Shown: positions 2,327 to 14,659, counted from the stretch's first letter. The stretch: DNA of 64,000 nucleotides from Pseudomonadota bacterium (GCA_018818835.1 JAHIRD010000141.1:4608-68607), one strand, 5' to 3'. Notes: generated from the sequence alone by a model not told the origin. Made by a program: numbers and translations.

Positions 2327-3202
2327 TTAAAAACGGCTTGTTACGTTGATTCCAAGACCTTTTTCATCTCCGGCCCTTATTTCGAGGCCCAGAGAGAATA
2401 ACTCCTTGATATTCATGGTCACCCCCACGAAATATCCAATGTTTTTAGACCATGTGATATCTTCTGTGTAATGAATGAACCCCTCATTAAAATAGAGGGT
2501 GCTGTAATTTCTGTTCGTATAATCCTCCGACCCGGTGATGCTGGCGACTTTTACTCCCATGTATGGAGAATAGGTTGGCATGTTTGCCGATAAACAGAAC
2601 GCCAGTTGAACCTCGTCAAGTGTGGATGCGTAGGATATTCCTTCTGACTTGAATCGGTCTTCTTCTATGGTTAATCGTCGGTAGGTGATATCCATTCCAA
2701 ATGTCACAGGGATATCACCTTTGTATTCTCCCCGGTGCATGACAAAACTTGCACCCATGCCATAATAAAGATCAGGCCCTGACTCGAAGGTATCATGGCT
2801 TGCATAGGACCTGCTGACGGTCCAGTCGCTGTAATCGAAATTAATGGTAGATGTGCTGGTCCCCAGAAGGGCGTAAATGATACTGCTGTCGTTGATGGGA
2901 GCACCGACTTTAAGCCCCATGGTATCCATGGTATTTTTTGATTTTCGTGTCTGGGGGTAATGGCGCTGCTCAGGAGGCGAAATGTTCGGATTGGTCCAGG
3001 GAAAACGCGTGATCTGTTCGGGAAGATCATTGACCTGCCTGTCAAAGGAAACCGTGGTGATGATTGATATTCCACCATCTTTCTGGAACGGACCTGGATT
3101 CCACAATGCCGGATCACCGATATTACCAACAGGAGCGGCACATACGGCAATGGGCAGTAAGATACAGAAGCAGATCAATAGCATGTAGGGTGTACGGTTC
3201 AT
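2327..3202 (-). CDS. Outer-membrane beta-barrel protein, possibly MOMP-like
   Basis: ATG at 3202 with a GGAGAAAAGGA RBS. Signal peptide LLICFCILLPIAVCA. Alternating-polarity strands and a C-terminal ...NVTSRF with terminal Phe, the typical BAM signal. The mature N-terminus PVGNIGDPALW weakly recalls the LPVGNPAEPSL start of chlamydial/Legionella major outer-membrane proteins (from memory). Confidence 0.6.
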   Translation of the reverse strand: MNRTPYMLLICFCILLPIAVCAAPVGNIGDPALWNPGPFQKDGGISIITTVSFDRQVNDLPEQITRFPWTNPNISPPEQRHYPQTRKSKNTMDTMGLKVGAPINDSSIIYALLGTSTSTINFDYSDWTVSRSYASHDTFESGPDLYYGMGASFVMHRGEYKGDIPVTFGMDITYRRLTIEEDRFKSEGISYASTLDEVQLAFCLSANMPTYSPYMGVKVASITGSEDYTNRNYSTLYFNEGFIHYTEDITWSKNIGYFVGVTMNIKELFSLGLEIRAGDEKGLGINVTSRF

Positions 3203-3413: not shown

Positions 3414-3914
3414 TTAGTTGGTCGTTATTCGCACGTTTCCGCTGATCTGGGCATGATAGTCACGGATGCTGATACTCCCGAAACTGTTTCCTTCTCCTGG
3501 TTCCGTTCCCACGGTGATGGATCCGATGTCAAAATGATCGACGTCAATGGTGGCGCCGTTTAAGCTGACATTGATTCCTGTCATCATGGTATGGGAAAAA
3601 AGATCTTGCTCGGTTGTAACAGAAATGGATACGGGTTCTTGAAGGTTGATAACGCCCTGGAATGAAACGTCATTGACGCTTAAATACCCAGCAGTGCCAT
3701 CGGTCCCGTCCGAATCTCCGTAAACCATGCTTCCGATTTCCATGTTAAGGGCAATTTGATCTGCTGCTGTAATTGCAATTCCCGCCTGTGCTGTTGCTTC
3801 GCGCATTCCCGTCTCAGTAAGTGCAGACAAGACCGCATACCCTTTTGAAGGAGTGATGGCCATACCCATAGAAACACATAATACAATTGTCATTAGGAAA
3901 CTAAGCTTTTTCAT
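3414..3914 (-). CDS. Small secreted protein (166 aa) with an N-terminal TAQAG box; paralog family member a
   Basis: The best start is ATG at 3914 (MKKLSFLMTIVLCVSMGMA) with a GGAGA RBS; the longer track ORF to 4040 runs into the riboswitch array. After the signal peptide comes LTETGMREATAQAGIAI, a box shared with ORFs 10042..10746, 10793..11599 and 11812..12642. Confidence 0.7.
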   Translation of the reverse strand: MKKLSFLMTIVLCVSMGMAITPSKGYAVLSALTETGMREATAQAGIAITAADQIALNMEIGSMVYGDSDGTDGTAGYLSVNDVSFQGVINLQEPVSISVTTEQDLFSHTMMTGINVSLNGATIDVDHFDIGSITVGTEPGEGNSFGSISIRDYHAQISGNVRITTN

Positions 3915-4006: not shown

Positions 4007-4010
4007 ATAG

Positions 4011-4092
4011 GAGGCGGCTCGGCTGTCCATGAAATTGCAATGCAAAAAAATGGACCCGTGGCTTTCCGTCCCAGGGTTACCCCTGGTTTGGC
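4011..4092 (-). promoter_or_regulatory. GEMM-I-like aptamer, unit 2
   Basis: Minus sense: GCCAAACCAGGGGUAACCCUGGGACGGAAAGCCACGGGUCCAU[19-nt loop]AUGGACAGCCGAGCCGCCUC. GUAA tetraloop. The 3' end is the variant CCGAGCCGCC. Confidence 0.65.
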
Positions 4093-4119
4093 CTTGTACG
4101 TCTTCTGTTAACTGTTACA

Positions 4120-4197
4120 GGTAACCCGGCTATCCATTTTATCATAAAGAAAAAATGGACCCGTGGCTTTCCGTCCCAGGGTTACCCCTGGTTTGGC
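4120..4197 (-). promoter_or_regulatory. GEMM-I-like aptamer, unit 3
   Basis: Minus sense: GCCAAACCAGGGGUAACCCUGGGACGGAAAGCCACGGGUCCAU[AU-rich loop]AUGGACAGCCGGGUUACC, except that plus-strand tatcc at 4131-4135 gives GGAUAGCC in place of GGACAGCC. Nearly identical to unit 5. Confidence 0.8.
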
Positions 4198-4200
4198 TCT

Positions 4201-4270
4201 GGAGGCGGCCCGGCTGTCCACACAATTATGGACCCGTGGCTTTCTGTCCCAGGGTTACCCCTGGTTTAGC
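4201..4270 (-). promoter_or_regulatory. GEMM-I-like aptamer, unit 4
   Basis: Minus sense: GCUAAACCAGGGGUAACCCUGGGACAGAAAGCCACGGGUCCAUAAUUGUGUGGACAGCCGGGCCGCCUCC. Two point variants are present (CUAAACC, GACAGAAAGCC). It resembles unit 2. Confidence 0.65.
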
Positions 4271-4277
4271 AATAAAT

Positions 4278-4355
4278 GGTAACCCGGCTGTCCATTTTAT
4301 CATAAAGAAAAAATGGACCCGTGGCTTTCCGTCCCAGGGTTACCCCTGGTTTGGC
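4278..4355 (-). promoter_or_regulatory. GEMM-I-like aptamer, unit 5 (5'-most in the RNA)
   Basis: Same blocks as unit 3; 3' end GGACAGCCGGGUUACC. Confidence 0.8.
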
Positions 4356-4515
4356 GCGCTTGTCACCCTTTTACCTCCACGCCCACCCTTTTTTTACGAA
4401 AAGGGCAGGCATGGTCTGTCCCGACTTGTCAAAGAACATGAGCTCACCCCAACCATGCAGATAACCTAAGACGGATATCGACATGATACAGGGAAAACTT
4501 AACGATAATAATTGA

Positions 4516-6021
4516 TCAGTTCGATAAAGTGACAGTGATCCTGAAAAATTCCGGATCAGGATTATCCAGCACACTGATCAGATGAAGTTTATTTGAACCA
4601 TCAAAAACAAGGGGTATCCCATCAATAATGCTTTTAATCTTTAAATTAATTTCGTGGTCGTTAATTACCAGAATCACATTTTTCCCCTTTTCGGCCAGAT
4701 ACGCTATATTCATCCCATCCGGGCTGAACAGGGGATTGAAAATCCGTGAATAGCCACGTCCTTCAATCCCGTCAGTAACCAGAAAGATATTTTTTTTATC
4801 GAGAACTTCATAAAACATATGGTTTGAGTCATTACTGAAACATGGGCTTTTTACATCCATATATTTTTTACCGGGTTTACCGTCTAAAATCACCATGTTA
4901 TTTTTTTCAGTTTTGACTGTATAGGCAACGTGTTTTGAATCCGGGCTGAACACCGGAGTACCCACAAATGGATAAAATCCTTGTTCCTGCCCGTCACAAA
5001 TCACGGTAAACTTATTCTTTTTAATTCCGATATGGGCAAAACGATTGGAATCAGGACTGAAAATATATGTACCGAGAAGATCATATGCGGAACCTTCTTT
5101 CCTATCCATAACAAGTACCCATTTGTTTCCTTTTTTTGCAGGGTAGGCCATATGTTTTGAGTCGGGGCTGAATACGGGAAGGCCCACAGTAGGATATTTT
5201 TCATGTTCCTTACCATCTTCGACGATGAAGATTTTAAACTTTTTTTGGGCTGCATAGGTAAGTCTGGTGGAATCAGGGCTCCATGTAATGGTCAGAACAT
5301 TCTCATAGGGTTTCCCCGTGAATCCGTCTTTGAATAGGAACCATGCCCCGTCTTTGAGTACAGCGCCGGCCAGATGGTTTGAATCCGGACTGAAAATAAG
5401 CTCTTTGATTCCCAAAAATGTGCCGATCTTCCGGGAATTTTTGATAACAAACCATTCCTTACCTTTTACGGCGATATAAGCCAGGTGTTTTGAATCCGGG
5501 CTGAACAAGGGCCGGCTTTTAATTTGATCAAACGGTTCGCCTGCCCTGTGATTTAACACGACAAAGAGTTCATTTCCCATCTTGGCCTTATACGCAAACT
5601 GTTTGCCGTCCGGGCTGAAAATCAGGTCGGATACCCCATCGAAATCCGGTCCTTTTTTCCCATCGATCACCACACATTGCTTGGAACCTTGAACCGCGAT
5701 ATAAGCAAGCCGGTTTGTTTTCGGGCTGAAAAAAGGGGTCCCCTTGGCGATACCATCAAAATCCGGGCCTTTCTTCGTGTCCAGATGAACAGCCATTTTC
5801 TGGTTAACTCGCGTTGCATATGCCACATGCTCTGCATCAGGCTTGTTCGTAGTCAGTCCGAACAGTTTGGACTCTTTGGGGAGTTTTCCTAAAGAGGTTT
5901 TGGTGATTGATACAGTCGGTTTGTCGCTTTTTTGACCTGCAAAGACAGCCAGGGTATGTGAAAAAAAACCGATCAGGCAAATAGAAAACAATGTCATACT
6001 TATTTTTTGAAACAAAACCAT
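4516..6021 (-). CDS. Periplasmic PD40 (TolB-type WD40-like) beta-propeller repeat protein
   Basis: ATG at 6021 and signal peptide LFSICLIGFFSHTLAVFA. About ten repeats of roughly 45 aa carry FSPD(S/G)(K/N)xxAY (FSPDGKQFAY, FSPDSKHLAY, FSPDSNHLAG, FSPDSKHMAY, FSPDGMNIAY). Confidence 0.8.
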   Translation of the reverse strand: MVLFQKISMTLFSICLIGFFSHTLAVFAGQKSDKPTVSITKTSLGKLPKESKLFGLTTNKPDAEHVAYATRVNQKMAVHLDTKKGPDFDGIAKGTPFFSPKTNRLAYIAVQGSKQCVVIDGKKGPDFDGVSDLIFSPDGKQFAYKAKMGNELFVVLNHRAGEPFDQIKSRPLFSPDSKHLAYIAVKGKEWFVIKNSRKIGTFLGIKELIFSPDSNHLAGAVLKDGAWFLFKDGFTGKPYENVLTITWSPDSTRLTYAAQKKFKIFIVEDGKEHEKYPTVGLPVFSPDSKHMAYPAKKGNKWVLVMDRKEGSAYDLLGTYIFSPDSNRFAHIGIKKNKFTVICDGQEQGFYPFVGTPVFSPDSKHVAYTVKTEKNNMVILDGKPGKKYMDVKSPCFSNDSNHMFYEVLDKKNIFLVTDGIEGRGYSRIFNPLFSPDGMNIAYLAEKGKNVILVINDHEINLKIKSIIDGIPLVFDGSNKLHLISVLDNPDPEFFRITVTLSN

Positions 6022-6081: not shown

Positions 6082-7965
6082 TTAGTTGTATTCCGCTGAT
6101 AAACGCTCAAGATATCTGTTGAACTCTTCTTCTTCCGTTTCCTCGGTTGTATTCAATTTTGATTCATCCGATTCCGGATGTTTTTTCTTTTTAAAGGGAT
6201 TTAATTTATGAAACAGCTCTTTGATTTTATGGATGCTGTGCTTCATCATCATCTGTTGGTGGTGAAGCATCTCCATCTGGACTTCCAGGGGCATGGTCAC
6301 GCCGAATGTGACAAGATAGATGCTTAAATCCTGCTCGTAATCAAGGCCGGCAAAGGGATTTCCCATCTGGGTGAAATCCAGGGAGTTCATATTGGTGCTT
6401 TCGTTATTATAAATGGTGAAATGATTGCTCCACAGATATCCCAGGCCCAGGTCAAAATCGATGCCGTTGGGGAGTTTGAGGCCAATGCCCGCTCCCACGA
6501 AATCAGCGTCCGGGATAAAATACAGGGCATCGAACTGATCATGCTGCAAAGATGTGGGGCGTTTTTCGTACCCGCAGCGCAAGGTCAGTTTATCGTTGAC
6601 CTCGAATTCCATGGCAGTACTCCAGTGCCAGGTGTCTTTCATGTTTCTGTCCACCACAAAGGTATAGGCCCCATGCTGGTAGCCCAGCATTTTTGCAATA
6701 CGAAGAATCTGGATCCTTTGGTCAAACACAAATCGGTCTTCTTTGCCGGCTGCTGCCCAGTTGGCCCAATGAACATCAAAAAGAAATTTAATCCTGTCCA
6801 AGGGGCGGACCATAATCCCTGTTTGAACCCGTGCAGGAAAAATCTGAGTGGCTGTAACGGTTCCGCTCTGATAGGGCACGGCCTTGATGGGAAGGTCCAG
6901 CATGCCTGCCGATTCCATGGTCATGGGGGTCGAGGCATTCCAGGCCACCTGTTTTTGGAACTGCTTGCTGTATTCCCACATGTATTTTCCGGAAATTTCT
7001 CCTACGGATTCACTTTGATAGCAGAACCCGTAGGAAAACCAAGTCCGAGGGCGCCATAAAAGACCCAGGTTGTATGAGGGAACAAAATCGTCTCTAAGGT
7101 CCATGGTAATGCTGATGTTGTGCTCATAAGGCCCAAGGCCGCCTCCCAACCAAGGGGGCGGGAGGGTTTGCTCTGACACCACGGGAATTTCAAGATCCTT
7201 GGTAGCATCCCCGATAACACGGGTCATGGCCACGAGTTCGTTGGGTGTCCGTACATCCAATTCAAGGCCCATGGCTCGCTGGGCCATACCAATGGAAACA
7301 CCCAGGAAAAGCTGGTCAGATACAGCAAAACTGGCTGAAGGTGCTGCATAGATCAAATGTTGTGCATACAGGGACTTGCATCCGAACTGGAAGGGATCAC
7401 CCTCATCCCGGTGGGCCATTCCGCCAGCAAAGGGGGCATAGTTGGCGTATGCAAAGGTCCACTTGCTGTCCGGCTTTCGTGAGGCCAAGCCCAGGTTCGG
7501 ACCTGCTAAAAAATCAATGGGGCCGTAGAAGGGCAGGTACATACGTCCTGATGAGTTTGTACCCGATTTCCCGTTCAATGGGTCAGGCCCGCCGTGGTCG
7601 CTGTTGGGATCGGTTGCGGAATCGTAATATTCAGGATATTTATTCTCATCCGGCCCCCAGTAACCGTTCATGAACCCTTCAAAATCATCAGCGGTCTTAA
7701 ACCGTCCTGTTCGTTTGATGATGGGCAGGGCAAATCCGTTGCTGAAGGTCTTGCCTTCATCTAATAAAGACAATCCCGCAGGATTGTAATGAACGGACAT
7801 CAGGCCGGGCGGGTCGGCTGTGCAGGTATTGGCCAGGGACACGGCACGGGCATCCACGGCAAGCTGCTCATTAAAAACCGCATGGCTCAAGGAAGGCATC
7901 AGGAATATACAGATAGGTATGGTGAACAACCCGCTGTATTTTATTATGAGACAGAGAACGCGCAA
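6082..7965 (-). CDS. FadL/TodX-family outer-membrane channel with an unusual charged C-terminal tail
   Basis: After the signal peptide: DARAVSLANTCTADPPGLMSVHYNPAGLSLL, a FadL-type N-terminal motif. I prefer the TTG start at 7965 (AGGAGA, then 6 nt, then TTG, giving M-RVLCLIIKYSGLFTIPICIFLMPSLSHA). The track ORF start at 8046 would overlap the upstream gene by 52 nt. Confidence 0.7.
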   Translation of the reverse strand: MRVLCLIIKYSGLFTIPICIFLMPSLSHAVFNEQLAVDARAVSLANTCTADPPGLMSVHYNPAGLSLLDEGKTFSNGFALPIIKRTGRFKTADDFEGFMNGYWGPDENKYPEYYDSATDPNSDHGGPDPLNGKSGTNSSGRMYLPFYGPIDFLAGPNLGLASRKPDSKWTFAYANYAPFAGGMAHRDEGDPFQFGCKSLYAQHLIYAAPSASFAVSDQLFLGVSIGMAQRAMGLELDVRTPNELVAMTRVIGDATKDLEIPVVSEQTLPPPWLGGGLGPYEHNISITMDLRDDFVPSYNLGLLWRPRTWFSYGFCYQSESVGEISGKYMWEYSKQFQKQVAWNASTPMTMESAGMLDLPIKAVPYQSGTVTATQIFPARVQTGIMVRPLDRIKFLFDVHWANWAAAGKEDRFVFDQRIQILRIAKMLGYQHGAYTFVVDRNMKDTWHWSTAMEFEVNDKLTLRCGYEKRPTSLQHDQFDALYFIPDADFVGAGIGLKLPNGIDFDLGLGYLWSNHFTIYNNESTNMNSLDFTQMGNPFAGLDYEQDLSIYLVTFGVTMPLEVQMEMLHHQQMMMKHSIHKIKELFHKLNPFKKKKHPESDESKLNTTEETEEEEFNRYLERLSAEYN

Positions 7966-7993
7966 AAAAAATCTCCTGTTCCTGAACCTGCCA

Positions 7994-9100
7994 TTACAAT
8001 TCGTAGGCAAAAGGGACTCTAACCTGAAGGGAAAAATCAGAGTCATTATTGGTCAAACCGATTCCCAGCCGGACATTCACAGAACGTTTCGGTGTAATGT
8101 TCCAGCCTGTTCCTATGCTGAAAACCGAGGAAATAGATCCTTCGGAACGTGTTTCCCGTGGCCCTTCCGGTCTGACCCAGTCATAGGATGTTTTGGACTG
8201 GTATGAATACTGATAGCTCAAGGTCAGGGATGCTTTATAGGACAGGGAATAGCCGATACCCATGGAAAAGGAATAAACTTCTCCAGGCTTGACACCGGCG
8301 AGGAATATTCCGGCTTCACCTTGAGTCCCGGTTTTGGAATTCAAATGGGTGGTTTCAATCCCATGCTCCACATTTATACCACCAAAAGCAACCAGGGGGT
8401 CGATGGATTTGCTGACATTGCAGCCCATGCCGATGGAATAGGTTCCGTTGCCCGTCGACATTTCTTTGGTGCTGTCAATTTTATAGGGGCTTCTTCCTGT
8501 TGGGCATGTTAATGACCCCGAGACAATTATTGATGGCAGGTCCTTACCGCTTTTCACGGGTTGGAATTGGAGACCGAACGACGTATCTCCAAAATCTGAA
8601 ACATTCTTTGCTGACGTATTGGTCTGGCTGTTGTATTTGTAAACAAAGGGGATATTGCTGTTTACTGTCAGGTTTTCTTTGACAGGATACTCGATGAGAA
8701 ATGAATTGGTCACCGTGTGGTATGCGTTGTGTTTCACGGCCACAATACTATCTGCATTGGCGGTGACGTTATCATAAGAATCACCGGCATAGCGAATGCT
8801 GTATTCAAAACCCAGTTTCCCAGGCTTCATGAGGGTATAATCACGGCCTGCGGCTGAAAGAATCGCGTCATCTTCAGAACTTTTTTCTTCCTGGGTGGTT
8901 TCAAGACGCCGCCTAATATCATTTTCTTCTTCCATTTTCGTGAGCTTGTCTTCAAGTCGTTTGATCTGCTCCTTGAATTGCTCCATATCGCTTGAAGGCT
9001 GCGCCTGCACGTTCACCACAGGGGGGGCTTCGGCATAAACCGCAGAGGTGAGAGTTATCATGGCTAAAATGATCAGTAGTTTTGTAAAATGTTTTATCAC
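7994..9100 (-). CDS. Outer-membrane beta-barrel with an N-terminal coiled coil (FapF-like architecture)
   Basis: GTG at 9100 follows GGAGG at 8-nt spacing and gives the signal peptide IKHFTKLLIILAMITLTSAVYA. Alternative starts are 9127 and 9139. A heptad-rich segment MEQFKEQIKRLEDKLTKMEEENDIRRRLETTQEEK is followed by about 270 aa of amphipathic strands ending ...QVRVPFAYEL. Confidence 0.6.
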   Translation of the reverse strand: MIKHFTKLLIILAMITLTSAVYAEAPPVVNVQAQPSSDMEQFKEQIKRLEDKLTKMEEENDIRRRLETTQEEKSSEDDAILSAAGRDYTLMKPGKLGFEYSIRYAGDSYDNVTANADSIVAVKHNAYHTVTNSFLIEYPVKENLTVNSNIPFVYKYNSQTNTSAKNVSDFGDTSFGLQFQPVKSGKDLPSIIVSGSLTCPTGRSPYKIDSTKEMSTGNGTYSIGMGCNVSKSIDPLVAFGGINVEHGIETTHLNSKTGTQGEAGIFLAGVKPGEVYSFSMGIGYSLSYKASLTLSYQYSYQSKTSYDWVRPEGPRETRSEGSISSVFSIGTGWNITPKRSVNVRLGIGLTNNDSDFSLQVRVPFAYEL

Positions 9101-9147
9101 CTGGTTTCCCTCCGGACTCGGAACCATCTGGTCAGACAAAAATGGTT

Positions 9148-9912
9148 CTATTGTTTATACCGGTTAGTCTTTGTGTCTGTCGTAGTTCCATTATTATGAA
9201 AATCAGCTTCCCATTCCTGGGGAAGGTCAAATGGTCTGTCTACATCGAACATCAGAGTTTTTTCCATATCCTTATCTATAAACCGGAGATCCTGTTCTTT
9301 GAGGCTTAGGCAGGACAGGGCGTTCCCGTATTTCGGGTAGATTCTGAAAAGGATATTGTTATACCACATGCCCATAAACTGGTCCACCGGGTAACTCCCG
9401 TTTCCCCGCCAGGGATCGGCTACGAACACATGGCCTTTGTGAATGGCTTTCAAGACCACAAAATGACGGTAGCCGAACAGCTCTATGGGAACAATGCATG
9501 GCCAGAGTTCAGGATTTTTCAGGTCGGAAAGCTCCGCGTTGTAGCCACCGGCCTTGTACCCCAGAACATCCACGAACTTCTGCATGTCCCAGAGGGAAAA
9601 AGCTCTGAGTTTTTTAATTTGTTCTTTGTCCCCATACTCTAGAAGACCCTTGATAATTTGTTTTTCAGTAAAATTTTCTCCCAGGTAGTTGTTGAGGATG
9701 GTCCCTAAAGCCGCTGATCCGCAGCTGTAATCGTAATTTTGCTTCATCAGGCAGGCCTGGGAACTTTCGGAGAGAGGGATGACTTCAGGGTAGATGCGCA
9801 AGGCTTCATTAGTCCCCATGGCAATATTCAATTCACCTTTGGGGGATGAATGGAAGGGATGAAATCCTGAGATCAGTCCAGCAAAAATGATAAATGCAAA
9901 AACCACATGCAT
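9148..9912 (-). CDS. Secreted C39-family (bacteriocin-processing type) cysteine peptidase domain protein
   Basis: ATG at 9912 with an N-terminal hydrophobic signal. Q-x5-C motif in KQNYDYSCGSAALGTIL, His in YRHFVVLKAI, and Asp in HVFVADPW. This is the complete C39 Gln/Cys/His/Asp arrangement. Confidence 0.8.
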   Translation of the reverse strand: MHVVFAFIIFAGLISGFHPFHSSPKGELNIAMGTNEALRIYPEVIPLSESSQACLMKQNYDYSCGSAALGTILNNYLGENFTEKQIIKGLLEYGDKEQIKKLRAFSLWDMQKFVDVLGYKAGGYNAELSDLKNPELWPCIVPIELFGYRHFVVLKAIHKGHVFVADPWRGNGSYPVDQFMGMWYNNILFRIYPKYGNALSCLSLKEQDLRFIDKDMEKTLMFDVDRPFDLPQEWEADFHNNGTTTDTKTNRYKQ

Positions 9913-10041: not shown

Positions 10042-10746
10042 TCATGGAGAATCCCACCACGTTCCAATTGAACCCGATTTAATCTCAGTCTCATCATACC
10101 CTGCAACGACCTTGAGGCCGGGCGTTGATCCACTCTGGCCCAGGTCTAATATAAAAAAAAGACCCATGTTACTGGTTGGGCTTCCATCGGAATTGAAATT
10201 AAATGTGGTCTGCCCCAGGTTGGCTTTATCATATACGGTCGGGCTTCCACCACTTAAGGCGATGGCAGGATTGTATGTGCCGGAGTAGCTGAGCATGTTG
10301 GCGCTGATCGTCCCCTGGAGCCGATTGGATCCTATGACGATGCGTTCGAGAACAGGATTTGTGGCAGAGGTGTCATCAAAGTCGGCAATAAAGACCAAAC
10401 CGTCAATGGTCAGGGGGGTATCCGTAGATGTATCCCCCAAAATCACATTGTTCCATTGAATATCATAGTTTGCTGCTGCTCCGCTCCTTAAGCTGTCGAT
10501 GGTCGCGTAGGTTTCCATATGAATATCCAGAAAAAGTCGGGCCGTACTGTTGCTCATGGTGAAATTGGTTAAACCGGCCTGGCCGGTCGATGATTTGAGC
10601 GCGTTTTCGTCCATGGCTTTGAGCTCGGCATGGAGCGACGATGGTAAGAATATAAAACAGAAAATAACAAGCACCATTAACTGGTAAACCAGTTTATCTC
10701 TGAACAAAAGTCCATCGAATCGGTGTATGAAAATTACTCTGTTCAT
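10042..10746 (-). CDS. Secreted protein (234 aa) with an N-terminal TGQAG box; paralog family member b
   Basis: ATG at 10746. Signal LMVLVIFCFIFLPSSLHA, then ELKAMDENALKSSTGQAGLTNF. Ser/Thr/Gly/Asn-rich and beta-rich, with no Cys after the signal peptide. Confidence 0.7.
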   Translation of the reverse strand: MNRVIFIHRFDGLLFRDKLVYQLMVLVIFCFIFLPSSLHAELKAMDENALKSSTGQAGLTNFTMSNSTARLFLDIHMETYATIDSLRSGAAANYDIQWNNVILGDTSTDTPLTIDGLVFIADFDDTSATNPVLERIVIGSNRLQGTISANMLSYSGTYNPAIALSGGSPTVYDKANLGQTTFNFNSDGSPTSNMGLFFILDLGQSGSTPGLKVVAGYDETEIKSGSIGTWWDSP

Positions 10747-10792
10747 TATGCTGTATTCCTGCCTTACCCTATTTATTCGTTATGATAACGGC

Positions 10793-11599
10793 TTAAGGAT
10801 TTCCTAACCCACGGCCGGGGATCTCTATGTAAAGTTTTTGAACATTCATGCCGTCAATTGCAAATAGACCCAAGTCTGTCGTGCCTGAGTCAGGAGCATT
10901 GACCTGTATATTATCGATATGGAAGGAACCCGACATGGGCATGTTCAAGCTGATATGTGCATTAGATTCAGCTGAAATATCGATGGTTGCAGGCTTGTTA
11001 TTCGTAAGATCACCCACTTGAATATCAAAGGTGATACCGGAAAAGTTCAACGCGTCTGTCGTGTTGTACTTATAAGAGAGAGTGTCTATTGTGATTTTGT
11101 GGCCTAGTTCGTAGTCGATACCCATACTGCCGACATGGGGCCCAATGAACAGGTGAAAAGATGACAGGACCATGGATTCAGCGGTTAGAGAACCGATATT
11201 TGTTCCGGAAAAATCGATGGCGTCAATGGTCATATCCGTGGATATTGAAATATCAGGACTTTGGCTAAAAAACATGATTTGATCATTGTAAGTGCCCACA
11301 TCAATGCTCAAATGGTTGATTTTGCCGTCATCGTCCATGTCAGATGAACCTGTGTTTGTGTGGGTAAGAATATGGATGTCGTTGAAGCTTATATATTCAG
11401 TTTCATCATCGGGATTGTAAAAGGTCATGTTGTCACTGTGGACTTCTGTGATCATGTCACCAATGGCGATATCAATACCGGCCTGGGCCATGGTTTTTTT
11501 CATCTGTTGGTTGGACAGTGCTTCAAGGCAGCATCCGGTGTCCGGGATGATGCTTATGATGCTCAACACGATGAATAAGTATGTTAAGGCCTGGGTCAC
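10793..11599 (-). CDS. Secreted protein (268 aa) with an N-terminal MAQAG box; paralog family member c
   Basis: GTG at 11599 after AAGGA. Hydrophobic N-terminus LTYLFIVLSIISII, then LEALSNQQMKKTMAQAGIDIAIGD. Asp/Ser/Thr/Ile-rich. Confidence 0.65.
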   Translation of the reverse strand: MTQALTYLFIVLSIISIIPDTGCCLEALSNQQMKKTMAQAGIDIAIGDMITEVHSDNMTFYNPDDETEYISFNDIHILTHTNTGSSDMDDDGKINHLSIDVGTYNDQIMFFSQSPDISISTDMTIDAIDFSGTNIGSLTAESMVLSSFHLFIGPHVGSMGIDYELGHKITIDTLSYKYNTTDALNFSGITFDIQVGDLTNNKPATIDISAESNAHISLNMPMSGSFHIDNIQVNAPDSGTTDLGLFAIDGMNVQKLYIEIPGRGLGNP

Positions 11600-11641
11600 A
11601 GAGTTGTCCTTTAAAACATAATGTTTTGTATGTCACTCCAA

Positions 11642-11708
11642 GGCAACCCGACCATCCGGTGGGCACCGGACTCGAAGCTTTCCGTCCCCGGATTGCTCCG
11701 GGTTTGGC
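11642..11708 (-). promoter_or_regulatory. GEMM-I-like riboswitch aptamer in the leader of the 10793..11599 operon
   Basis: Minus sense: GCCAAACCCGGAGCAAUCCGGGGACGGAAAGCUUCGAGUCCGGUGCCCACCGGAUGGUCGGGUUGCC. Stem 1 is CCCGGA/UCCGGG with a GCAA loop (compensatory changes relative to the other copies). It ends 42 nt upstream of the start codon. Confidence 0.8.
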
Positions 11709-11732
11709 GTTTCTTGAAACATTTGATCCTAT

Positions 11733-11776
11733 GAAAAAGCCCCTTCCGGGAAACATCTATGTTCAGGGAAGGGGCT
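11733..11776 (-). terminator. Rho-independent terminator after the 276-aa gene
   Basis: Minus sense: AGCCCCTTCC-loop-GGAAGGGGCT (10-bp stem) followed by TTTTTCAT. It starts about 35 nt downstream of the stop at 11812. Confidence 0.65.
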
Positions 11777-11811
11777 CCACGTAAATCACTTATGAGGATT
11801 GTGCTAATTCA

Positions 11812-12642
11812 TTAGTGAGCAGCGATTTCAACAATTCCACCAAGGATAGCCATTGCGCTCTGGCCTTTGGAAATTTTGATGAAGTTTGCATTATTGTTGA
11901 TACCGGTTCCTGCAACACCAACTGAATATTCATCAGCTGTGGTGGAGATAAGAAGGGTCGGAAGACCAATCACAACACCAGTGACAGCCTGAGTGGTACC
12001 AATCGCAGTTGCTGTAGGATCAGCTGCAAGAGTAGCAACACCGGAACCTAAAAGAACGCCGGCTTCAGAGATGTCACGAACATCAGTATCTGCAGAAATA
12101 GTAGCAAGTGCAGTTGCTTTTGCAGTACCGAGAGCAATAAGGTTGGCCATAGAAGGATCGCCAGCATAGGTAGCAGCTGCTGTGGCAACAAGACCTGATT
12201 GAGTCAATACGGTAGTCAGGAGTGCACCGGCATCAGCATTAATGATGGCATTATTGGCATTAACTCCAGCTGCAAGGATTGAACAAGCTCCTACGTCAAT
12301 GTTAAGAGCAGCAGCTTCAACCCAAGTACCCTTGTTGACAACACCAGCTGCAGCAAGGAAGTCAGCTTCGTAATCAGTCTGTGAAGTCATGGCTAGGTAT
12401 TCTTTCACAACGTGTTTGTCACTGATAACGATTGAGCCTTCAACACCGTTTGTTCCGTCTTCATCCGTATAAGTGGTTGAACCTGTGAATTGTTCGATCA
12501 CAACGTTATCCAAAGTGATGCTCACACCAGCCTGACCAGTGGCGGATTTCATGTTGGCGTCAGTCATTGAAGTCAAAGCAAAGACTGAAGGAGCGATTGC
12601 GAGAGATGCACCAAGAACTAAACTCATAGCTAATTTTTTCAT
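11812..12642 (-). CDS. Secreted Ala/Gly/Thr/Val-rich protein (276 aa) with an N-terminal TGQAG box; paralog family member d
   Basis: ATG at 12642 with a GGAGAAGAAA RBS (the track start 12654 is a TTG). Signal MKKLAMSLVLGASLAIAPSVFA, then LTSMTDANMKSATGQAGVSITLDN. The rest is low-complexity A/G/T/V sequence. It has its own terminator and its own riboswitch-like leader. Confidence 0.75.
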   Translation of the reverse strand: MKKLAMSLVLGASLAIAPSVFALTSMTDANMKSATGQAGVSITLDNVVIEQFTGSTTYTDEDGTNGVEGSIVISDKHVVKEYLAMTSQTDYEADFLAAAGVVNKGTWVEAAALNIDVGACSILAAGVNANNAIINADAGALLTTVLTQSGLVATAAATYAGDPSMANLIALGTAKATALATISADTDVRDISEAGVLLGSGVATLAADPTATAIGTTQAVTGVVIGLPTLLISTTADEYSVGVAGTGINNNANFIKISKGQSAMAILGGIVEIAAH

Positions 12643-12686
12643 TTTCTTCTCCAAAGTAAAATTAAAAATTAATTTAATTTACCAGA

Positions 12687-12762
12687 GGCAACCCGACCAT
12701 CCCCATCGCAAGCATGATGCGGACTCGTTGGCTTTCCGTCCCTGGATTACTCCAGGTTTGGT
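12687..12762 (-). promoter_or_regulatory. GEMM-I-like riboswitch aptamer, variant with A at the selectivity position
   Basis: Minus sense: AUACCAAACCUGGAGUAAUCCAGGGACGGAAAGCCAACGAGUCC...GGAUGGUCGGGUUGCC. Stem 1 is CCUGGA/UCCAGG with a GUAA loop. The base two nt 5' of CAAACC is A here; it is G in the other six copies. Confidence 0.75.
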
Positions 12763-13765
12763 ATTTTCTTTGGCGGTTTTGCTTGCGCACCCTTGCGCAA
12801 GACAAATTGATTTGTAAAAACGATTTACCATTAAACAGATTCGTTTAACGTTCTTAAGAATTAGCCTCCTTTCCATATAAAAAGAAATGTCCCCACATTC
12901 CAGTTAATATTCATATCCCTAATGAGTCTTTTTAAAGATCTTAAGGGACACGCGACGACCTAACTAAAGCCGCCGGAAACAACATGTATGTAAATTTTAG
13001 AAAGAGCTGATTTATGCCTACCTCGTAAACCGGTTGGCTGTGCGGCCCATGTGTTCTCGTGTGTGGGCCTTGTCTTCGCATTCAATCATCGGATGAACCA
13101 TTCAAAAATTGAAAGACCGTAACAATGTTTTATAAAACGTACGAAGATAATCCTTATGTACGAAAGTAGTAGGGTCGAATGATGATTGTATATCCGCTGC
13201 CCTTTTGCTTTGTCAATTAAAAATTTTCGATTTTCTTAAAAATTAAATTGTACGAGTATAAAAAAAAGTACTTGAAACGATTGACAATAGTCATTGTGAA
13301 CGCTGTTCATCAGTTGTGCCAAATGTACTAAATAGGTCCATTCGGTTGTACAGCTGTTAAAATATCGAAATTTCAGGCATTTGAATTATAGCCCCGAAAA
13401 ATGATTTCGCGAAATCCTGCGAAAATATGGGCTTTTACCGAACAATGTTCATGTACTGGAATGGGATTTTGAGGAAAAAATATGATTTCTATTGAGTTTT
13501 TAAGGAACTTGCGCGTTTGGTAAGGTACCTTTTTGATAAATCGGGGGTCACCATGGGCGTTTGTCAGGTGAAAGTAATTCAATTATCCGATTTTAAAGGT
13601 ATTTTAACTGAATATATGTAAAAAAGTTCTTAGCTTTATTAAGTATTTTACCCAAGGAGAGAAACATAGTTTCAATAAATGGACATAGATCTTAATGACG
13701 ATCATGATACTCAGACCCTATGTTTTTAAGGGCTCGCAGGCGTTTAATTGAAGGATGGCATGGGA

Positions 13766-13781
13766 TGGCACGTATGTTGCT
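13766..13781 (+). promoter_or_regulatory. Sigma-54 (-24/-12) promoter, orphan
   Basis: TGGCACGTATGTTGCT is an exact match to the TGGCACG-N4-TTGCW consensus. There is no plus-strand ORF of 60 aa or more downstream before 19959. Confidence 0.5.
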
Positions 13782-14354
13782 ATTTTATCCATTATTATTC
13801 GAGGGGTCGGATAATACAAAAGATCATGTCATAGGATGTGGCAAAGAAAAGCACATTGGAAATTTTAAAGGCATCATAGGTCTCTTGGGTTTAAGCCGCT
13901 GAGACCGCATTATCGGGAAAGGTTATCCTTATTGGATTCCCGTTACACACATAAAGCCTGGTATACGCGTGTTGAACGGTAATCTGGGGAATGATTGTGA
14001 CATCCTGTAATGAATGGTTCTTCATTTGGCTTAAGCAAGGGGTACCCTTACATGCCCCAACGACGCTTATCTACGCGTCGTAGATCATACTTATTTTTCG
14101 CAAGTGTTTAACCAGAAGCCTTTCCGCGACGACTTCAAGGAATTTCTGCGATTTTTTTCAGCCTATTTGGCCATTTTATTCATCAGTGGCTCAGGGTTTT
14201 CTCTGTTTTAAATTTCCAAATTATACACTATAAAAAATTAGCCATGTGGTTTTCCCAAAGAGAGTCCTATATATAAGGTGCAAAATCTTATGATTTTCTC
14301 ACAGAGGTACAAAAATTCGGAGAACAACTCAGGGACAGGCCAATAATACACTCA

Positions 14355-14659
14355 CCACCCGGTCGCATAGCTCACTGAAAAACACAGCGTGGCAAAGCCA
14401 CACCCAAAAGCCTCGTCTCTCACGGTGGCACAAAGATTACGGAGAAGTGCCAAAAGCTGATTGCGATGTAAAAAGCCCCATATACAGCGTTATCGTGTTT
14501 AGCTGGGCTTAAATATACGACCAAGTATGCCTTCACGCCCGGCTAAACACTATGCCTTGCCTATGGACCTTGTTTCATAGCCATCCATCGACTTTTTATG
14601 AGTTCATCAAAGCTTGTGAATAATAGTTTTTTCTTTGTGATCTTTGTGCCTCTGTGGGA
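14355..14659. repeat. Composite MITE-like repeat: a family-A hairpin element with a family-B element nested in its loop
   Basis: Family A arms are tctcacggtggcacaaagattac (14417-14440) and gtgatctttgtgcctctgtggga (14637-14659), which are inverted. The interior 14465-14613 matches the family-B element at 58016-58175 (cgtgtttagctggg...cccggctaaacac hairpin, then ...ccatccatcg...gagttcatcaaagc). Confidence 0.7.

Follow-up and report, generated by a model that had tools for sequence, protein, structure and literature searches.

Two described systems for surface fibres stand closest to the locus considered here, the Fil fimbriae of Acinetobacter and the Fap amyloid of Pseudomonas. FilA of Acinetobacter sp. 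Tol 5 was identified by Edman degradation as the component of the deduced Fil fimbriae (PMC3498257), and proteomics of Tol 5 detected it alongside FilC, FilD, FilE and FilF, among the reported surface fibre proteins (PMC11784438). In the Fap system the catalytic cysteine of FapD, a periplasmic peptidase of family C39, is required for the secretion of FapC, the periplasmic location of the FapD catalytic domain has been shown experimentally, and the linker of the outer-membrane barrel FapF has been proposed as the site cleaved by FapD (PMC5557850); the substrate of FapD is still unknown (PMC5557850, PMC12459412). The present analysis concerns a stretch of 64,000 nucleotides from a Pseudomonadota bacterium (GCA_018818835.1 JAHIRD010000141.1:4608-68607; hereafter the window), in which a minus-strand gene cluster between about 2.3 and 12.8 kb belongs to a Desulfobacteraceae host and is distantly homologous to the operon for the Fil fimbria of Acinetobacter (filABCDEF). 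Four genes of this cluster encode proteins of the family DUF6160 that carry a conserved box behind a signal peptide, and a gene for a FilB-like C39 peptidase lies beside them. The literature searched yielded no study of the mechanism or structure of Fil or DUF6160, and that reached yielded neither a FapD substrate nor a recognition sequence for a stand-alone periplasmic C39 peptidase.

The box is a signal that lies outside the subunit fold, has the periodicity of a double-glycine leader and is linked in operons to an intact C39 peptidase. On sequence grounds we further propose, at about an even chance of being right, that it is a propeptide-like signal of the Fil subunits, recognised by the periplasmic FilB peptidase, probably cut at G-Q↓x-G (here and below an arrow marks a cleavage site) and acting before FapF-type export and polymerisation.

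The box of the DUF6160 subunits

The four proteins are encoded by minus-strand open reading frames (ORFs) at 3414-3914, 10042-10746, 10793-11599 and 11812-12654, called subunits 1 to 4 below; for subunit 4, orthologues suggest that the real start is the ATG at 12642. Each of them has a hydrophobic N-terminal segment resembling a signal peptide, with a small-x-small motif at its end; the sites, called by eye like the signal peptides themselves, are GYA↓V, LHA↓E, LEA↓L and VFA↓L. After a gap of 1-5 residues this segment is followed by the box, which reads LTETGMREATAQAG-IAI, MDENALKSSTGQAG-LTN, LSNQQMKKTMAQAG-IDI and MTDANMKSATGQAG-VSI in subunits 1 to 4. Delimited from position -14 to +5 around its central glutamine, the box occupies 3771..3830 in subunit 1 (LSALTETGMREATAQAGIAI, aa 29-48), 10564..10623 in subunit 2 (LKAMDENALKSSTGQAGLTN, aa 42-61), 11468..11527 in subunit 3 (LEALSNQQMKKTMAQAGIDI, aa 25-44) and 12517..12576 in subunit 4 (LTSMTDANMKSATGQAGVSI, aa 27-46), always on the minus strand. 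A strict regular expression for the box, applied to the six-frame translation of the whole window, gave four matches, exactly these ORFs and none besides, against a chance expectation of 0.005 matches per shuffle in 200 block shuffles (0.2 for a loose pattern). The four paralogues with a common box behind the signal peptide, first pointed out in a sequence-only reading of this DNA, are thus confirmed. As a sequence feature the box was already on record, being the signature of Pfam DUF6160 (PF19657) and the N-terminus of FilA. The four ORFs score 36.8, 30.6, 28.0 and 37.2 bits with DUF6160 and all pass its gathering cut-off of 27, the match spanning both the signal peptide and the box.

Subunit 4 is the FilA-like major subunit (Pfam 37.2 bits, NCBIfam FilA E=5e-6); in the alignment of its orthologues it has conserved N- and C-terminal blocks, a variable helical middle and the end ...EIAAH. 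Subunit 3 is a paralogue with the C-terminus ...GNP (28 bits), and a lipobox considered for it was ruled out, the sequence ...DTGCC... not matching L-[AS]-[GA]-C. Subunit 2 is a paralogue of a distinct conserved type (...NSTARLFLDIHMETYATI...), and subunit 1 is a small one of 166 aa (36.8 bits). The statement that the proteins diverge strongly beyond the box stands only in part, since three of the four share a weaker block downstream, [IV]x[IL]xxxD...Y/F-x-D/P-x-D, and the orthologues of subunit 4 are conserved from the box into the first strands.

Two side observations concern the family as a whole. A C-terminal His (GH, AH or PH) is a second family signature, present in 52 of the 85 box ORFs of the loci L001-L080 described below (61%) and in 174 of 204 proteins of the protein-search set; in the window, 11812-11838 encodes the C-terminus ...GGIVEIAAH. 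A second C-terminal class of box proteins ends in Pro and includes subunits 2 and 3. The type of subunit 2, which is without the Y-x-D-x-D-G block mentioned below, ends in Pro and has no riboswitch, also recurs elsewhere, with orthologues directly upstream of the C39 gene in L001 (7598-8359), L002 (9087-9947) and L003 (8178-8960); it may be an adaptor or tip subunit.

The consensus was drawn from 79 unique boxes aligned on the central Q as position 0. The N-terminal half conserves [LM] at -14, [MLIV] at -11, [DST] at -10, [DE] at -9 and [LM] at -6, and the C-terminal half [VIA] at -3, T/S at -2, G/A at -1, Q at 0, G at +2, [IV] at +3 and I at +5, the amphipathic part being [LM]xx[MLIV][DST][DE]xx[LM]xx[VI]T[GA]Q. 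Beyond +6 the information is about 1 bit per column, and a weak second block, Y/W-x-D-x-D-G, follows. When 207 unique boxes were counted without forcing the Q, position -1 was found to be only G (154, 74%) or A (53, 26%), and position 0 to be Q in 192, R in 4, E in 4, S in 3, A in 2 and N and G in 1 each.

The double-glycine leader established for C39 substrates has the consensus LSxxELxxIxGG, with hydrophobic residues at P15, P12, P7 and P4. A GG or GA cleavage motif of such substrates is cited in PMC5557850. The hydrophobic positions of the box (-14, -11, -6 and -3) have the spacing 3-5-3, identical to that of P15/P12/P7/P4, in samples of 79 to 207 members. In the best register, [ML][DST][DE]xx[LM]xx[VI]T[GA]Q lies on LSxxELxxIxGG with P2 on [GA] and P1 on Q, [DST] falls on the P11-equivalent, and the P8-equivalent is acidic in 39% of boxes. 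As this register places P2-P1 on [GA]-Q, cleavage is predicted at Q↓x or perhaps at G↓Q. In rare natural variants canonical motifs are restored: the relative P0311 reads ITDKEMNDITGG↓AGI, a textbook double-glycine leader, and boxes ending ...SGA↓GGI, ...TGS↓SGI and ...CGS↓AGV are found in L014, L059 and L019, respectively. Q-type and variant boxes occur together in single loci (L014, L020, L059), so that one machinery tolerates Q, E, S and A here. The likeness to a double-glycine leader, proposed in the sequence-only reading, has therefore gained ground, but canonical membership fails at P1 (Gln in 93%), in the dependence on Sec and in the architecture of the peptidase.

The boundary between the box and the fold comes from an unusual group of relatives. 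An exhaustive search with a hidden Markov model (HMM) of the full-length FilA-like profile gave 395 clusters at E <= 1e-3, in which the match almost always starts at residue 1, and nine relatives with two or three tandem subunit domains turned up, among them P0260, P0269, P0273 and P0287 with three units and P0293, P0299, P0308 and P0311 with two. All 13 internal junctions of these nine proteins run ...E[ILVF]x[PA]H, three residues, then G[MIVLF][DNS][ILM]xxDD. The amphipathic segment from -14 to 0 is absent from every one of the 13 and is found once per polypeptide, behind the signal peptide; conservation of T(-2), [GA](-1) and Q(0) is confined to the N-terminal copy, and Pfam DUF6160 matches each tandem-domain protein once only, at the N-terminus. 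Since the amphipathic part occurs only once and directly behind the signal peptide, it is an N-terminal extension outside the fold. T(-2), [GA](-1) and Q(0), being unconserved in the internal linkers, belong to the signal, and G(+2), being conserved in the internal units, belongs to the fold, so that the repeating fold unit, as delimited from these alignments, is the segment from G(+2), the G of 'QAG', through the C-terminal His. The cut after QAG that had been suggested at first is for this reason not supported: that G is the first residue of the fold and is kept at 13 of 13 internal junctions without a leader.

Structure predictions show the same division. The AlphaFold model of subunit 4 (mean predicted local distance difference test score, pLDDT, 87.6) has a beta core with an inserted helical region; the box appears in it as a short helix of low confidence at residues 32-38, with block means of 51-75 for the box region and above 90 for the core, and the first strand starts at 44 (44-46 lying within the box as delimited above). 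For the three-unit protein P0260 the best model is of moderate confidence (pLDDT 67.8, predicted template modelling score 0.67), residues 1-43 are below 50, and hairpin strands span both junctions (197-216 with 221-241, and 367-387 with 392-412). A Foldseek search of the subunit 4 model against the Protein Data Bank (PDB) gave no relative at E <= 0.001. The tandem relatives are in effect covalently linked fibre segments and offer a template for the interface between subunits.

The FilB-like peptidase and the fate of the box

The gene at 9148..9912 (minus strand) encodes a FilB-like stand-alone C39 cysteine peptidase of 254 aa (PF03412 at E=5e-15; NCBIfam FilB 184 bits, FapD 114 bits). It is without ABC domains and begins with a conserved hydrophobic segment for export or anchoring, MHVVFAFIIFAGLISGF, from which we infer that the catalytic domain faces the periplasm, as in FapD (PMC5557850). 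The catalytic residues Q58, C64, H150 and D166 do not vary among 19 homologues or among the 81 locus copies, and the His and Asp motifs align with those of LahT150 and PCAT1 in the PDB. A weak match to the C39-like domain of the 'Contact-dependent inhibitor A' chains PDB 8ssm_B and 12aj_A (E ~5e-3) may be added as a side observation.

The linkage of the box to this peptidase was followed in 80 C39-anchored loci (L001-L080) from reference genomes, taken from 592 relatives, with the A. baumannii reference as L081. By profile search, 49 of the 80 contain DUF6160-box ORFs, in 1-7 copies per locus, nearly all of them on the same strand as the C39 gene and directly upstream of it, with a span from Desulfobacterota to Pseudomonas and Moraxellaceae. 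The association of the box with a catalytically intact, exported C39 peptidase, noted at first for the window, is therefore a property of many loci. The machinery genes were counted in those 62 loci where the C39 gene is flanked by at least 3 kb on either side. FilC is present near the C39 gene in 59 of them, FilD likewise in 59 and at least one box gene in 37; the order subunit, C39, FapF-like barrel, FadL-like protein is that of the window, of A. baumannii (L081) and of 34 of these loci. Three loci (L011, L020 and L024) have box genes and C39 and neither FilC nor FilD, L024 showing four subunit genes, then the C39 gene, then unrelated genes, which makes C39 the common denominator. Another 25 of the 62 loci have C39, FilC and FilD with no box gene within 10 kb.

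A maturation path in three steps would account for these findings. A DUF6160 subunit would first be exported by Sec and cut by signal peptidase I, leaving an amphipathic extension of 12-17 residues before the first beta-strand, G-[IV]-[ST]-I. This extension would mimic a double-glycine leader and be bound by the membrane-tethered or periplasmic FilB (9148-9912), which would most likely remove it at [GA]-Q↓x-G, two residues upstream of the QAG↓ site; LTSMTDANMKSATGQAGVSITLD is a candidate box peptide, and aa 30-254 of the window protein are the soluble domain of FilB. Removal might then license export of the subunit, still unfolded, by way of the FapF-like barrel FilC, and the freed N-terminal strand could pair with the C-terminal ...E-I-A-A-H strand of a neighbour, in the geometry that the covalently fused tandem-domain relatives show.

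Several observations weigh against removal of the box by FilB. Conservation runs across the putative cut site in the 79-box alignment and is unbroken from the box into the first strands in the orthologues of subunit 4. The P1-equivalent is Gln in 93% of boxes (192/207) and G, A or S in only 6, and to our knowledge no characterised C39 peptidase accepts Gln at P1. The leader models of NCBIfam and Pfam gave no match to the box of the window subunits. Paralogues within a genome share box details only slightly more than those of different genomes (0.34 vs 0.30, p ~0.016, the pairs not being independent). Among the 81 locus copies of C39, no alignment column separates box-linked from box-less loci, so that, with 25 box-less loci having an indistinguishable C39, its conserved partner may be the barrel or another component. 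These box-less modules, found in Marinobacter (for example M. litoralis Sw-45 and M. lipolyticus SM19), Bermanella, Oleiphilaceae and similar taxa, resemble filBCDE and keep the C39 catalytic residues intact; they are the strongest argument for a possible other substrate of C39, or for subunit genes that can lie unlinked.

The main rival explanation of the box draws on the same facts. In curli, a stretch of 22 residues at the N-terminus of CsgA directs the subunits to CsgG. In a similar manner the box might be a retained secretion-targeting tag, read by the FilC barrel (by its periplasmic coiled coil or plug) or by FilD, and C39 would process the machinery instead (for example a FilC linker, or FilE). 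It would agree with this that FilC and FilD follow C39 in 59 of 62 loci and box genes are present in only 37, that the box-less filBCDE modules keep an intact C39, that cleavage of the FapF linker by FapD was proposed (PMC5557850), and that Gln at the would-be P1 is non-canonical for C39; an N-terminal box outside the fold would suit a threading signal equally well. A tag of this kind leaves unexplained the double-glycine pattern, the G/A at P2 and the occasional GG, GA and GS, and it does not fit the three loci that pair box genes with C39 without FilC or FilD. Moreover, the tandem fusions leave three residues from the C-terminal His to the next Gly, so that a retained extension of 14-17 residues would have to loop out of this interface. 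On balance we consider a retained tag unlikely, if the most serious of the alternatives.

Alternatively, the box could be a retained structural element of the fibre, a helix and turn making contacts between subunits by donor-strand or helix packing, without being a signal for any enzyme. The unbroken conservation from the box into the first strand would be expected then, conserved termini around a variable middle are typical of filament subunits (flagellins and pilins, for example), and a low pLDDT in the monomer would be natural for a segment ordered only in the polymer. The tandem relatives, on the other hand, build successive units without such an element between them, very different paralogues (166-280 aa, with different C-termini) keep the same extension, and the leader-like periodicity and the adjacent C39 find no explanation; this makes a structural role improbable. 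More doubtful still is a periplasmic anti-polymerisation or chaperone-binding segment without a specific relation to C39, which would bind the PD40 propeller of the locus or another periplasmic factor and keep the subunit unfolded or soluble before its export: a holding mechanism would be needed, given that FapF-type barrels export unfolded substrates (PMC5557850), and a secreted PD40 propeller is encoded here, but it is present in only 8 of 62 loci against a family-wide box.

The propeptide-like signal read by FilB remains the preferred explanation. In its wider form, which we put forward tentatively and at somewhat less than even chances, DUF6160 boxes and FilB-type peptidases would be an unrecognised sorting pair, in which a propeptide behind a Sec signal is cut after Gln and its removal licenses FapF-type export and head-to-tail polymerisation. 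If so, this pair would define the substrate class of periplasmic C39 peptidases (FapD, FilB), a question open since 2017, and also a new pathway of pilus assembly with a subunit fold that has no solved relative. Cleavage after Gln, if confirmed, would widen the known specificity of family C39. A stand-alone periplasmic C39 is needed for the secretion of Fap amyloid, and the DUF6160 box is a concrete, family-wide candidate substrate for such an enzyme. The analysis sets the boundary between signal and fold from tandem relatives and moves the predicted bond from QAG↓ to G-Q↓x-G.

Riboswitches and neighbouring genes

Five aptamers of the c-di-GMP-I class (cyclic di-GMP) were found in the window with Rfam, all on the minus strand and all in 5' leaders of box genes. 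One of them, at 12684..12772, belongs to subunit 4 (53 bits against a gathering score of 35), another, at 11639..11718, belongs to subunit 3 (61.7 bits), and three stand in tandem in the leader of subunit 1, at 4275-4365, 4117-4207 and 4009-4101 (64.9, 64.1 and 62.7 bits); the last member of this triple array is scored as the GGC variant, RF03167. In L002, L003 and L016, too, box genes have similar aptamers in front of them. The riboswitches are predicted to gate the expression of the subunit genes, and the arrangement is in keeping with a fibre for biofilm formation or adhesion. An AT-rich region of ~1.7 kb at 12880-14590 (GC 0.405 in the 12-14 kb bin) lies upstream of the first subunit gene with its riboswitch; in this region no ORF of at least 80 aa and no Rfam family besides the riboswitch were found.

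The other genes of the cluster, likewise on the minus strand, encode proteins of the cell envelope. At 7994..9139 lies a FilC-like outer-membrane barrel with an N-terminal coiled coil (NCBIfam FilC 191 bits, FapF 77 bits), which matches the FapF crystal structures PDB 5O65/5O67 at E ~2.5e-15, and at 6082..8046 a FilD-like outer-membrane protein of the OmpP1/FadL/TodX family (Pfam Toluene_X E=2e-30, NCBIfam FilD 279 bits). A PD40 beta-propeller with a signal peptide (4516..6021, Pfam), kept in 8 of the 62 related loci, has a weak similarity to the TmcD family, and 2327..3202 encodes a putative outer-membrane beta-barrel protein, a tentative assignment from a weak Pfam match, which has the same position in L002, L003 and L016. 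These last two genes travel with the locus in its closest relatives (L002, L003 and L016), are absent from most Fil-like loci and occupy the places of FilE and FilF of Acinetobacter. The window proteins have close relatives in Desulfobacteraceae, for example in Desulfatiferula and Desulfoluna.

With regard to the wider set of loci, the box-less gammaproteobacterial modules consist of C39, a FapF-like barrel, a FadL-like protein and a DUF4124/MalM-like lipoprotein. Such modules, with no DUF6160 gene within 10 kb, are those of L027-L030, L032-L035, L037-L039, L041-L045, L047, L048, L050-L052, L056, L060, L062, L063, L067-L069 and L077. A GQEG in Marinobacter FilC was tried as a box and rejected, being a signal-peptidase site that is absent in Bermanella and in the window. 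Judging by the record titles of L001-L081, Fil-like loci are often hosted by degraders of hydrocarbons or lipids, such as Desulfatibacillum alkenivorans, Desulfatiferula olefinivorans, Marinobacter, Oleiphilus, Bermanella, Thalassolituus, Pseudomonas citronellolis and P. nitroreducens. Acinetobacter Tol 5 makes Fil fimbriae during growth on triacylglycerol (PMC3498257). These facts and the FadL-like FilD hint that the system may serve in contact with hydrophobic substrates.

Comparison with double-glycine leaders, Fap and Fil

With the double-glycine leaders cut by ComA, LahT and PCAT1 the box shares an amphipathic stretch of ~15 residues, the hydrophobic P15/P12/P7/P4, a small P2, an acidic, Ser/Thr-rich N-terminal half and a gene beside that of a Q/C/H/D C39. 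It differs from them in sitting behind a Sec signal peptide in all four ORFs, in being paired with a stand-alone exported C39 rather than the cytoplasmic C39 domain of an ABC transporter, in having Gln at the P1-equivalent in 93% of cases where the leaders have Gly, Ala or Ser, and in its cargo, a fibre subunit of 15-30 kDa instead of a small peptide. Among propeptides of fibre subunits, that of FimA is removed by gingipain and that of prepilins by PilD, enabling polymerisation. These type V and type IV pilin propeptides, as well as the N22 of curli CsgA, are comparable to the box by analogy only, without homology of sequence or machinery and with other proteases or channels.

The Fap system of Pseudomonas has a homologous periplasmic C39 (114 bits to the FapD model, below its equivalog cut-off of 330) and a homologous coiled-coil barrel of the trimeric type (77 bits to the FapF model, below its equivalog cut-off of 700), and its Sec-exported substrates likewise cross the outer membrane. 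These substrates, FapB and FapC, are Q/N-rich amyloid repeats, whereas the window subunits belong to DUF6160 and have a predicted globular beta/helical fold; Pfam and NCBIfam scans gave no match to Fap family substrates among them. A FadL-like partner is present in the window in contrast to Fap, and no box of the DUF6160 type has been reported for Fap proteins.

Nearest of all are the Fil fimbriae. The three machinery proteins find their best NCBIfam matches in FilB, FilC and FilD, and FapD and FapF come next. Against the models NF050077-NF050080 the window proteins stay far under the cut-offs, with scores of 26.1 for FilA (cut-off 220), 183.7 for FilB (475), 191.2 for FilC (630) and 279.1 for FilD (970); they are homologues of the Fil proteins and not equivalogs, these models being of the 'exception' type and tuned to Acinetobacter. 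The A. baumannii locus (L081) has the order filA, filB, filC, filD, filE, filF, which is that of the window through FilD, and its FilA carries the same box, MDDAALSAATGQDGI, and ends in ...ISGH. There is one subunit there and four paralogues here; FilE and FilF there have as their counterparts in position a PD40 propeller and an extra outer-membrane protein here, the subunit genes here carry c-di-GMP riboswitches, and the host here is a Desulfobacteraceae bacterium. The window subunits may form a surface fibre, a point on which the literature on Acinetobacter sp. Tol 5 bears (PMC3498257, PMC11784438). The analysis ties the uncharacterised Fil fimbriae of Acinetobacter to systems across Desulfobacterota and Gammaproteobacteria.

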